Shown: positions 6,711-7,556 of the stretch, in pieces
Position numbering within the stretch: position 1 is the first letter of the stretch
Layout of the letters: every line of letters starts with the position of its first letter
Notes under the pieces: model-generated
What the model saw: the letters and a program-made list of their open reading frames with translations, nothing else
Told to the model about the DNA's origin: nothing
The model's database searches: none
NCBI RefSeq assembly: GCF_023204835.1
Contig: NZ_CP096270.1
Location: forward strand, 2,472,907 to 2,496,906
Length of the DNA: 24,000 bases
Origin: Salinarchaeum laminariae
GTDB lineage: Archaea; Halobacteriota; Halobacteria; Halobacteriales; Salinarchaeaceae
Direction: 5' to 3'
Made by a program: the position numbers and the translations under genes

Positions 6711-7556
6711 ATGACGAGCCCCGATGGCACACAGACCGGTAGCGCAGAGACCCCGGCCTCGTCCACCGACGCGAACTCGCCTGTCGACGCCTCACGGTAT
6801 CGACGTCTCCGTCGCTGGAACGCGGTGATGGCAGTCATTCACTTTCTCCAGGGCGCACTGATGGTGGCGCTCGCTTCACCCGTTCGCTGGCCGATCACTC
6901 GGACGCGATACGAGTTCGATCCTGCCACGGAGACGATCGCCCCAATCAGCGTCGAGTGGGCCGAGGTCACCCTGCCGCTACTCGTCGCTGGATTCCTCTT
7001 CGTCTCGGCGCTGGCCCACGCCACAATCGCGACGCTCCGGTACGACAGCTACGTCGCGTATCTGGAACGGGGGATGAACCCCTACCGCTGGTATGAGTAC
7101 GCCGTGAGCGCGTCGCTGATGATCGTCGTGGTCGCGATGCTCGCTGGGATCTGGGACGGCGGGACGCTCGTAGCCCTCTTCGGACTCGTGGCCGTGATGA
7201 ACCTCTCAGGGCTGTTGATGGAGTCCCGAAACGAGTTCGCACGTGAGGACGTCGACTGGTCGCCGTACGTCGTCGGCACGATCGCCGGCCTCGTTCCGTG
7301 GATCGTGATCGCTATCGCCATCGCAGGCTCGCTCACCGCAAGCGGTGGGAACGTGCCCGACTTCGTCCTCTACATCTACGTCTCGATCTTCCTGTTCTTC
7401 AACTGTTTCGCGCTCACCATGATCTTCCAGTACCGGCGATTCTGGCGCTGGGAGGACTATCTATTCGGCGAGAAAACCTACATTCTGCTCAGTCTGGTCG
7501 CGAAGTCCCTGCTTGCCTGGCAGGTCTACTTCGGGACGATCACCTCGCCGGTCTGA
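6711..7556 (+). CDS. heliorhodopsin (7-TM retinal protein, inverted-topology rhodopsin family)
   Basis: The 281-aa protein aligns by eye over its whole length to heliorhodopsin 48C12 as I remember it. RWNAVMAVIHFLQGALMVALA matches NFNRIAGVFHLLQMLAVLALA. NPYRWYEYAVSASLMIVVVA matches NIFRWVEYSLSSSVMIVLIA, with the counterion Glu kept. GLVPWIVIAIAI matches GIVPWIGLLIYV. VSIFLFFNCFAL matches ISLFLFFNSFAL. GEKTYILLSLVAKSLLAWQVYFGTI matches GERAYIVLSLVAKSALAWQIFSGTL. The Schiff-base Lys is K265 (codon 7503-7505). Confidence 0.88.
   Translation: MTSPDGTQTGSAETPASSTDANSPVDASRYRRLRRWNAVMAVIHFLQGALMVALASPVRWPITRTRYEFDPATETIAPISVEWAEVTLPLLVAGFLFVSALAHATIATLRYDSYVAYLERGMNPYRWYEYAVSASLMIVVVAMLAGIWDGGTLVALFGLVAVMNLSGLLMESRNEFAREDVDWSPYVVGTIAGLVPWIVIAIAIAGSLTASGGNVPDFVLYIYVSIFLFFNCFALTMIFQYRRFWRWEDYLFGEKTYILLSLVAKSLLAWQVYFGTITSPV

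Follow-up and report, generated by a model that had tools for sequence, protein, structure and literature searches.

The DNA analyzed here is a 24,000-nucleotide stretch of the Salinarchaeum laminariae genome (hereafter the window), in which an open reading frame at positions 6711..7556 of the forward (+) strand encodes a heliorhodopsin (HeR) of 281 amino acids, followed by a stop codon. Its start codon is backed by the conserved asparagine of the first transmembrane helix (TM1), which occupies position 37 here and in five orthologues (L007, L012, L022, L028 and L070). Upstream, on the same strand, lies the gene for a YchF/YGR210-like GTPase with MMR_HSR1, YGR210-like_G4 and TGS domains (5461..6621, +), and downstream, convergent with HeR, a gene for a DUF456 membrane protein (7716..8249, -); both are Pfam assignments that serve as context only, and they match the flanks named in the original prediction. 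The 89-bp gap between the GTPase and HeR genes contains a TATA-like element read from the sequence, TATACATTT (6677..6685, +; positions -34 to -26 relative to the ATG), which is a plausible candidate promoter for a leaderless or short-leader HeR transcript. Comparable A/T-rich hexamers occur at -37 to -31 in a Halovivax locus (L040) and at -33 to -28 in locus L156 of genome G305, and a locus of the same genus (L045) has an A/T-rich hexamer at about -45; similar elements are thus present in two of the three other loci inspected. Farther out, about 5 kb upstream of the HeR gene, lie genes for an SDR and an aldo-keto reductase, which are conserved in the congener.

The match between the encoded protein and the heliorhodopsin family PF18761 is far above chance. 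Specifically, residues 33-277 cover the entire profile (positions 1-242 of 242) at E 2.4e-91, with a score of 305.8 bits where the cut-off is 26.7 (306 bits in the whole-genome search). PF18761 was the only family matched in a Pfam search at E <= 0.01, and the type-1 microbial rhodopsin profile PF01036 (Bac_rhodopsin, comprising BR, HR and SR) did not match the protein at that threshold. The best match in the PDB is 6is6 (TaHeR), at E 1.6e-74. As such, the profile, the key residues, the predicted fold and the phylogeny agree that the window encodes a canonical heliorhodopsin, and the full-length similarity claimed from the sequence in the first place is confirmed.

The residues on which heliorhodopsin function depends are retained, and the four motifs highlighted in the original prediction fall where it had placed them. 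Lys265 in SLVAKS (codon at 7503..7505, +) is the retinal Schiff-base lysine in helix 7, within the SxxxK pattern formed with S261; it aligns with K238 of TaHeR and K241 of 48C12, S261 aligns with S237 of 48C12, and both residues are invariant in the HeR alignment. The Schiff-base counterion, Glu129 in RWYEY (7095..7097, +), is likewise invariant, aligns with E108 of TaHeR and E107 of 48C12, and is followed four residues on in helix 3 by S133, as in the family at large. VIHFLQ supplies His44 (6840..6842, +), the equivalent of 48C12 His23, and SALAHAT supplies His103 (7017..7019, +), the equivalent of 48C12 His80; in heliorhodopsins these two histidines line the polar cavity. From the list of conserved HeR polar residues compiled by Kovalev et al. 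2020 (PMC7049168), the protein keeps N37, H44, S99, H103, Y114, N123, R126, W127, E129, Y130 and S133 as well as E171, Q240, Y250, E254, S261 and K265; the sole change is 48C12 Gln213 to Met237, and methionine at this position is a common HeR variant according to the same study.

The AlphaFold model (pLDDT 86.8, pTM 0.82) has seven helices and an A-B beta hairpin with strands at residues 60-70 and 75-86. Foldseek aligns it to TaHeR (6is6/7u55) with a TM score of 0.93-0.94 and an rmsd of 1.7-2.1 A, and to 48C12 with a TM score of ~0.87, whereas the best type-1 rhodopsin reaches only E 1e-3 and a TM score of 0.5-0.6. With helix limits taken from the model, 14 Lys/Arg residues fall on the side of the N-terminus and the B-C, D-E and F-G loops, compared with 3 on the side of the A-B, C-D and E-F loops, and the protein is therefore predicted to adopt the inverted HeR topology with a cytoplasmic N-terminus. 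Five arginines within residues 29-35 fit the positive-inside rule. Ahead of this R-rich stretch, which precedes TM1, are ~28-32 residues that bear out the proposed low-complexity N-terminal extension. This S/T/A/D/E-rich tail (residues 1-28; 6711..6794, +) is predicted from composition and pLDDT to be disordered and cytoplasmic, with pLDDT below 50 for residues 1-25. Tails of similar composition and low sequence conservation are found in most haloarchaeal HeRs, where they lead into the motif PRYRRLRRWN or SARDTRLRLWN.

In the tree, a quick search that leaves many forks unresolved, the protein groups within a haloarchaeal HeR clade supported at SH-aLRT 95, whose main subclade reaches 98. The named relatives all belong to the Halobacteriales, in keeping with the haloarchaeal setting assigned at the outset. 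The original prediction had also singled out the occurrence of a heliorhodopsin in a haloarchaeon; such an occurrence is not rare, as a HeR gene is present in 46 of the 401 genomes sampled from this order (27 of 117 genera) and HeRs of Halobacteria have already been described. Bulzu et al. 2021 assigned those of 'aerobic Halobacterota' to cluster C12 and showed the surroundings of Halobacteria HeRs in a supplementary figure. No characterised haloarchaeal HeR was found in the searchable literature. The protein is an ordinary member of a clade already known in haloarchaea and adds nothing new to the family.

The sole unusual aspect is the genome, which holds HeR as its only rhodopsin and no known route to retinal. 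The assembly consists of one contig, with an estimated completeness of 93.5%. A whole-genome search with PF01036 returned no match, whereas the same search was positive in 243 of 401 relatives, and halorhodopsin queries from three relatives found nothing (best E 0.63). In the congener and in Halovivax, a halorhodopsin with a TSA motif lies 1-5 kb from HeR; in this genome it is gone without trace. The retinal genes, judged from known families only, are equally absent: PF15461 and PF03055 (Brp/Blh and carotenoid cleavage oxygenase) have no match in the genome while control genomes were positive, and a Brp protein query from the same family found nothing (best E 1.3). Since the Pfam profile Lycopene_cyc is insensitive even for true CrtY, a real CrtY query was used instead; it gave two strong matches in control genome G004 and, in this genome, only a 17-bit match inside a metallo-beta-lactamase gene on the opposite strand. 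One Lycopene_cyc match of 35 bits was rejected, as the CrtY query found no cyclase; it consists of a single domain of ~90 aa, and the small ORF that encodes it neighbours ABC-2 and ThiI genes. The earlier remark that the window contains no brp/blh or crtY thus holds for the whole genome in these searches. Carotenoid synthesis appears from the gene content to stop at the acyclic branch, because the genome contains a bacterioruberin-type cluster of phytoene synthase, CruF and UbiA-type LyeJ.

This combination has parallels among relatives. Among the 46 HeR carriers, 39 have a type-1 rhodopsin and 34 have Brp; none of the 7 carriers without a type-1 rhodopsin has Brp, and five have a type-1 rhodopsin without Brp. 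Halostella pelagica and Halovivax asiaticus are further complete genomes with HeR alone. Beyond the order, Bulzu et al. 2021 count 381 HeR-only genomes across many phyla, mostly without a full retinal pathway, and propose uptake of exogenous retinal, citing Shihoya et al. 2019.

The available data are best accommodated, with somewhat better than even confidence, by a model in which this canonical HeR acts as a slow-cycling photosensor that is loaded with scavenged retinal and modulates a partner protein. The seven-helix protein would sit in the membrane with its N-terminus in the cytoplasm and attach all-trans retinal to Lys265, for which Glu129 would supply the counterion. By analogy with 48C12 and TaHeR, it would pump no ions and would pass through a slow cycle after absorbing green light, with the long-lived O state expected of the family. 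Most likely, the apoprotein would obtain its retinal by scavenging from the hypersaline community, which follows from the lack of a lycopene cyclase, Brp/Blh or carotenoid cleavage oxygenase. Through direct contact, the photosensor may then modulate a partner in the cytoplasm or the membrane, a step drawn from the analogy with the AbHeR-glutamine synthetase, TfHeR-photolyase and OcHeR-ABC transporter pairs.

The loss of halorhodopsin raises the question whether HeR is still in use. With no retinal of its own, the protein might rarely or never be pigmented and might persist as an idle relic drifting toward loss. Several observations are compatible with such a history: the halorhodopsin kept near HeR in the congener and in Halovivax is absent here, the terminal branch of the protein is long (0.25 compared with a median of 0.064), and 8 of 120 clade-conserved columns deviate (median 1.5), which could mean relaxed constraint. 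Furthermore, the dN/dS of HeR is ~2.5-fold that of the GTPase next to it, and elsewhere the gene is split or fragmented (G077 and G207) or missing from the same site (Halovivax G376). Yet the ORF is unbroken and has lost no functional residue, and the 8 deviations are conservative or located in loops. Relative to the congener, dN/dS is 0.23-0.28, and HeR is under purifying selection, since this value is clearly below 1; pseudogenization or decay was rejected on these grounds. Nor is the HeR-only state a one-off, given Halostella pelagica and Halovivax asiaticus, and a relic is unlikely.

A second possibility concerns the source of the chromophore, namely that the host makes retinal or another polyene aldehyde itself through an enzyme outside the Brp/Blh and carotenoid-cleavage-oxygenase families. 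Both HeR and halorhodopsin, with neither Brp nor CrtY, are encoded by Salinarchaeum sp. HArcht-Bsk1 and by two genomes of Halovivax, and five HeR carriers in all combine a type-1 rhodopsin with no Brp; two retinal proteins without a known supply recur in complete genomes. The SDR and aldo-keto reductase genes upstream, conserved in the congener, could be added to this list, as nearby SDRs have been raised as possible retinol dehydrogenases (Bulzu et al. 2021), but their link to HeR is one of proximity only. In addition, no candidate cleavage enzyme was identified in the genome, the missing lycopene cyclase leaves no beta-carotene substrate, and scavenging is an accepted explanation for rhodopsin carriers without blh (Bulzu et al. 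2021). It is therefore improbable that Salinarchaeum and Halovivax form the chromophore with an enzyme not yet described or rely on a non-canonical polyene aldehyde; if they did, this HeR-only genome would offer the simplest setting for finding the route.

A recent preprint (Kornilov et al. 2025, bioRxiv 10.1101/2025.11.27.691015) proposes that HeRs in general harvest light or bind carotenoids, and carotenoid binding through the lateral fenestration or light harvesting, rather than classical signalling, could be the main role here too. The residues that line the TaHeR fenestration are largely kept (Y186, G193, F230, N231 and A234, with Thr190 in place of Cys168), and the host probably makes bacterioruberin-type carotenoids, as its gene cluster suggests. 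On the other hand, position 227 is a phenylalanine, as in 48C12 (F203), in place of the Ala200 of TaHeR, and a bulky residue there has been linked to a tighter fenestration (Kovalev et al.). The preprint favours exogenous xanthophylls and does not mention bacterioruberin, and energy-converting activity is not known for HeRs of this type, which makes such a role quite doubtful.

The neighbouring genes, in turn, were considered as a guide to the partner. The original prediction had suggested surveying conserved neighbours at haloarchaeal HeR loci: among the flanking genes of 33 such loci, no cluster is common to more than 10, and those that recur do so at varying positions. DUF456 adjoins HeR in 0 of 30 relatives (in the congener, its gene lies ~2.2 kb away), and a functional link with it was rejected accordingly. 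Only G000, G021 and G305 have the GTPase immediately beside HeR, and it is one or two genes off in three Halovivax genomes. The two flanking genes thus give no hint of function: conservation near HeR is never seen for DUF456 and is limited to three lineages for YchF. A dedicated HeR-linked GTPase paralogue was likewise rejected, as the type is a widespread housekeeping gene found in 288 of 401 sampled genomes regardless of HeR; two copies of the YchF type occur in the congener and in Halovivax, and the copy next to HeR shares 81-87% identity with the window GTPase. A general cluster of HeR with type-1 rhodopsin or Brp was also discarded, with type-1 genes within 8 kb in 4 of 32 loci and Brp or CrtY in none. 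Over the window's first 15.5 kb, Pfam annotation finds no glutamine synthetase, photolyase or ABC transporter. Histidine kinases, which are reported near Halobacteria HeRs in Supplementary Figure 12 of Bulzu et al. 2021, are absent from the Pfam-annotated genes at positions 1-15,500, where one 345-aa ORF has no Pfam match. That HeR might light-regulate the adjacent YchF/OLA1-type GTPase, much as AbHeR does glutamine synthetase, is very improbable: the order YchF-then-HeR on the same strand does recur in three lineages of different families, and dS relative to the congener is similar for the two genes (0.80 for the GTPase, 0.83-0.88 for HeR), but the GTPase is present in 288 genomes compared with 46 for HeR, the two genes lie 7-120 kb apart in most HeR carriers, in Halovivax G376 the GTPase and the intervening gene are present but HeR is not, and the 89-bp gap here has its own TATA-like element. 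For the preferred reading, a photosensor loaded with scavenged retinal, no partner is named because no conserved operon partner, or other conserved partner gene, was found at haloarchaeal HeR loci.

The practical value of this HeR is its genomic background, a one-contig haloarchaeon that has HeR alone and lacks any known way to retinal. Provided the strain is available in culture, supplementing the medium with retinal could trigger holoprotein formation, and a retinal-dependent light response could then be ascribed to HeR, with no bacteriorhodopsin, halorhodopsin or sensory rhodopsin to interfere. Such a host could thereby help with the question of what heliorhodopsins do. It would offer convenience rather than anything new in principle, as comparable HeR-only genomes are known in many phyla (the 381 of Bulzu et al.).

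Among the known systems, AbHeR with glutamine synthetase (PMC9529153), TfHeR with photolyase (PMC9769723) and OcHeR with the OmrDE ABC transporter (PMC11109279) belong to the same protein family, and they establish partner binding and modulation as the only demonstrated action of non-transporting HeRs. Their partners are encoded beside HeR, whereas here no adjacent, co-oriented and conserved partner gene exists. With the founding bacterial HeR 48C12 (PDB 6SU3, 6UH3), the protein shares ~40% identity, the overall fold at the TM score given above, all residues of the Schiff-base region and polar cavity, and the phenylalanine at the F203 position; it differs in the asparagine near the ionone ring (N138 there, N164 here), in Met for Gln213 and in the sequence of the A-B loop. 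Within the haloarchaeal clade, identity is 56-75% to the HeRs of Halapricum, Halosimplex, Salinibaculum, Halorubellus, Halovivax, Halovenus, Halorubrum and others. One subgroup has the same PRYRRLRRWN juxtamembrane motif and S/T-rich tail, while the longer terminal branch and the 8 changed columns set the protein apart from most of the clade, and the genome, lacking type-1 rhodopsin and Brp, differs from those of most haloarchaeal HeR carriers. The closest structural counterpart is TaHeR of Thermoplasmatales archaeon SG8-52-1 (PDB 6IS6, 7U55, 7CLJ). Unlike TaHeR, the window HeR has an extra disordered tail of ~28 residues, an E-F loop that is 5 residues longer, Thr190 for Cys168, Leu194 for Phe172 and Phe227 for Ala200 at the fenestration, and a haloarchaeal host. 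The two proteins nevertheless share 49-50% identity over the whole core, the same Schiff-base lysine, counterion glutamate and both histidines, Tyr (Y125) and Met at the 48C12 Phe103 and Gln213 positions, and a single asparagine near the ionone ring (N164, at the 48C12 Ile142 position) with Val (V160) at the Asn138 position.

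The 281-residue open reading frame at 6711-7556 (+) encodes an ordinary heliorhodopsin (HeR), a further member of an already known clade of a known family, whose one unusual point is its genomic background. Specifically, Pfam assigns the protein to one family only, PF18761 Heliorhodopsin (E 2.4e-91, 305.8 bits), with all 242 profile positions matched at residues 33-277, which bears out the full-length heliorhodopsin of the original prediction and leaves no other family in the profile search. The closest solved structures are the Thermoplasmatales TaHeR (6IS6, 7U55; E 1.6e-74) and then the founding bacterial 48C12 (E ~2e-48), and residues were mapped through the structure-match alignments to these two proteins and cross-checked on a computed alignment. 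The four motif residues K265, E129, H44 and H103 all lie where they had been placed. Kovalev et al. 2020 (PMC7049168) name conserved polar residues of the polar cavity, the Schiff-base region and the Glu149 region, and the protein retains them (N37, H44, S99, H103, Y114, N123, R126, W127, E129, Y130, S133, E171, Q240, Y250, E254, S261 and K265), the sole departure being Gln213 to Met237, a frequent variant according to the same authors. These comparisons identify the protein as a heliorhodopsin with all the residues needed to bind and stabilize a protonated retinal Schiff base. A confident AlphaFold model with 28 aligned relatives as input (pLDDT 86.8, pTM 0.82) contains seven helices, with the beta hairpin typical of HeRs in its A-B loop, and it matches TaHeR (TM 0.93-0.94, rmsd 1.7-2.1 A) with structural scores far above those against type-1 rhodopsins. 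The inverted topology of the family fits, since Lys and Arg are split 14 to 3 in favor of the N-terminus side.

Residues 1-25 are predicted to be disordered in the model. Most haloarchaeal HeRs have a poorly conserved tail of similar S/T/A/D/E composition ahead of an R-rich juxtamembrane motif, so the tail characterizes the clade and does not set this gene apart. The window protein shares its version of the motif, PRYRRLRRWN, with Halovivax, Halorubellus, Halosimplex salinum and others, while SARDTRLRLWN marks a second haloarchaeal group and PSDWNLRRFN a third, short-tailed one. The conserved Asn of helix 1 stands at position 37 in this protein and several orthologues, which supports ATG 6711 as the start. 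Sequence inspection reveals a TATA-like element, TATACATTT, 26-34 nt upstream of this ATG (+), with comparable A/T elements at the Halovivax and G305 HeR loci and farther upstream in the congener, Salinarchaeum sp. HArcht-Bsk1; a candidate promoter of its own, giving a leaderless or short-leader transcript, is plausible.

Purifying selection acts on the gene, a little less strongly than on its housekeeping neighbor: against the congener, the whole gene has a dN/dS of 0.28 and the core one of 0.23, while the adjacent GTPase has 0.11. The two genes have similar dS values (0.83-0.88 for HeR, 0.80 for the GTPase), as vertical inheritance of the pair within the genus would predict. In the maximum-likelihood tree the terminal branch measures 0.25 against a median of 0.064, and the protein is off consensus at 8 of 120 strongly conserved clade columns (median 1.5), the residues concerned (I43, L109, V141, R178, C232, T236, F239 and T278) being conservative or in loops. 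An idle relic, which the long branch would suit and continuing purifying selection would not, is the strongest of the rival readings, and an unlikely one.

The 3.17-Mb genome, a single contig, has a single HeR gene in the genome profile search. The same kind of search found no type-1 rhodopsin (PF01036), no Brp/Blh beta-carotene dioxygenase (PF15461) and no RPE65-type carotenoid cleavage oxygenase (PF03055) in this genome; elsewhere it was positive for type-1 rhodopsin in 243 and for Brp in 221 of 401 relatives, and for the oxygenase in control genomes. A tblastn search of the genome with Brp from a same-family genome yielded nothing either (best E 1.3), so that the proposed check for brp/blh came back empty by both routes. 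The Pfam lycopene cyclase profile gave one weak 90-residue match, to a small stand-alone protein (L032:1394-1800, G000:C1:~270760-271170; 32-35 bits) that adjoins ABC-2 transporter and ThiI genes; similar single-domain matches occur in the congener, G004 and G290. It is not a canonical CrtY. Because the profile scores even true haloarchaeal CrtY poorly, a real two-domain CrtY served as query: it gave two strong hits in the control G004, which is Brp-positive, and none in either the congener or two Halovivax genomes; in the window's genome its only match, of 17 bits, was rejected as lying inside a metallo-beta-lactamase gene on the opposite strand. Present instead is a bacterioruberin-type arrangement of phytoene synthase, CruF and a UbiA-type prenyltransferase. 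The inventory therefore indicates a cell that makes acyclic C50-type carotenoids but with known enzymes could make neither retinal nor beta-carotene.

Of the 46 HeR carriers sampled, 39 possess a type-1 rhodopsin and 34 possess Brp; the 7 that lack the former all lack the latter too, so that in this sample Brp accompanies HeR only where there is a type-1 rhodopsin as well. The congener's sole type-1 rhodopsin is 5 kb downstream of its HeR (L160, G021:C1:422130-422804) and that of Halovivax 1.2 kb away (L162, G240:C1:2266244-2266933, and L040:9881-10771 in two genomes), always on the HeR strand and within 1-5 kb, a proximity seen at only 4 of 32 loci. Helix C of these proteins has T, S and A where bacteriorhodopsin has D85, T89 and D96, the halorhodopsin signature. 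The congener and the two Halovivax genomes have neither Brp nor CrtY, and so hold two retinal proteins without a known retinal supply. As they keep a halorhodopsin near HeR and no halorhodopsin remnant was found in the window's genome, the latter is derived, with HeR alone kept. An endogenous chromophore route outside the known enzymes, which would account for such genomes, seems slightly less likely than a relic. A carotenoid-antenna role would have C50 carotenoids at hand, and is more doubtful again.

The available data favor, with a fair degree of probability, a retinal-binding heliorhodopsin with an external chromophore. By analogy with characterized members, it would be inserted N-terminus-in, absorb green light, cycle slowly without transporting ions, and act through contact with another protein; the gene inventory points to a chromophore from outside the cell. 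This agrees with Bulzu et al. 2021, who note that a retinal pathway is mostly missing from HeR-only organisms and, citing Shihoya et al. 2019, that HeRs are proposed to acquire retinal from outside. The value of the system is modest: a haloarchaeon with HeR as its only rhodopsin offers a clean experimental background, in which pigment formation could be controlled via retinal supply.

Pfam agrees with the neighbors originally described, a YchF/YGR210-like Obg-family GTPase upstream on the same strand (5461-6621, +) and a convergent DUF456 membrane protein downstream (7716-8249, -). The proposed survey of conserved haloarchaeal neighbors came out negative: DUF456 stands beside HeR in 0 of 30 relatives, no flanking family occurs in more than 10 of 33 HeR loci (~16 kb each), and recurring families vary in position and orientation. 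The congener and Halovivax have two YchF-type copies, the HeR-near one 81-87% identical to the window's, against 43-47% in HeR-less genomes of the same family; a special HeR-linked paralogue was rejected, as the type is found in 288 of 401 genomes order-wide. The GTPase immediately precedes HeR in the two Salinarchaeum genomes and G305 alone, is found one or two genes from it in three Halovivax genomes, and persists with the intervening gene in a fourth that lacks HeR. Shared local ancestry best accounts for the association, and functional coupling of HeR to the adjacent GTPase is very improbable.

Within Halovivax, one and the same site, which follows the GTPase and a conserved gene of 247 aa, lacks HeR in L158 (G376:C1:2955500-2964500) and has it in L040, a pair suited to reconstructing HeR gain or loss. 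About 5 kb upstream of HeR are a short-chain dehydrogenase (SDR) and an aldo-keto reductase (627-2268, +), which the congener also has upstream of its HeR, in swapped order. Bulzu et al. considered that SDRs encoded close to HeRs might be retinol dehydrogenases; by proximity alone, the SDR here would be a candidate. A membrane protein at 4463-5257 (-) has two N-terminal helices, many near-identical TVSKEVEE-type repeats and only weak, sub-threshold Pfam matches, and G+C falls to 0.43-0.51 at 18000-21000 from ~0.63-0.70 elsewhere in the window.

HeR occurs in 46 of 401 sampled genomes of the order and 27 of 117 genera, including Halapricum, Halobacterium rubrum, Halosimplex, Salinibaculum, Halorubellus, Halovivax, Halovenus, Halostella, Halolamina, Halorubrum, Natronoarchaeum, Halosegnis, Haloarchaeobius, Halorientalis and Halorhabdus. 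These are 61-75% identical to the window HeR, followed by Thermoplasmata at 49-55%. A quick maximum-likelihood search with SH-aLRT support answered the suggestion of phylogenetic placement: the protein falls within one haloarchaeal clade (SH-aLRT 95) adjoining Thermoplasmata. Family labels are scattered inside this clade and one copy lies on the 160-kb plasmid unnamed1 of Halosimplex sp. TS25 (L111, 140471-145214), which suggests lateral spread among haloarchaea. A very divergent pair from Haloarculaceae/Halobacteriales MAGs (L128 and L129; stem 1.57) also falls inside it, 47-50% identical to the window HeR and with all key residues present; its conserved A-B loop Pro is Gly and its Gln271 is Trp. 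In some haloarchaea HeR appears decayed or interrupted: split by ~1 kb in G077 (C1:843348-843617 and 844673-845152), in fragments in G207 (C5:32488-32897), and as an extra partial copy in G383 (C9:18545-18787). Our literature search found no paper with experimental characterization of a haloarchaeal HeR; Bulzu et al. 2021 place those of 'aerobic Halobacterota' in cluster C12, with Halobacteria neighborhoods in a supplementary figure, and archaeal subfamilies were defined by Kovalev et al. (PMC7049168).

Known partners of HeRs are glutamine synthetase for AbHeR (PMC9529153), photolyase for TfHeR (PMC9769723) and an ABC transporter for OcHeR (PMC11109279). In its details the window protein resembles TaHeR, with Tyr (Y125) in place of 48C12 Phe103, Val (V160) in place of 48C12 Asn138 and, close to the ionone ring, one Asn only (N164, 48C12 Ile142). 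Of the TaHeR lateral-fenestration residues named by Kornilov et al. 2025 (bioRxiv 10.1101/2025.11.27.691015), it retains Y186, G193, F230, N231 and A234 and differs in Cys168 to Thr190. At position 227 it has Phe, matching 48C12 F203 where TaHeR has Ala200; Kovalev et al. linked Phe at this position to a tighter fenestration opening.
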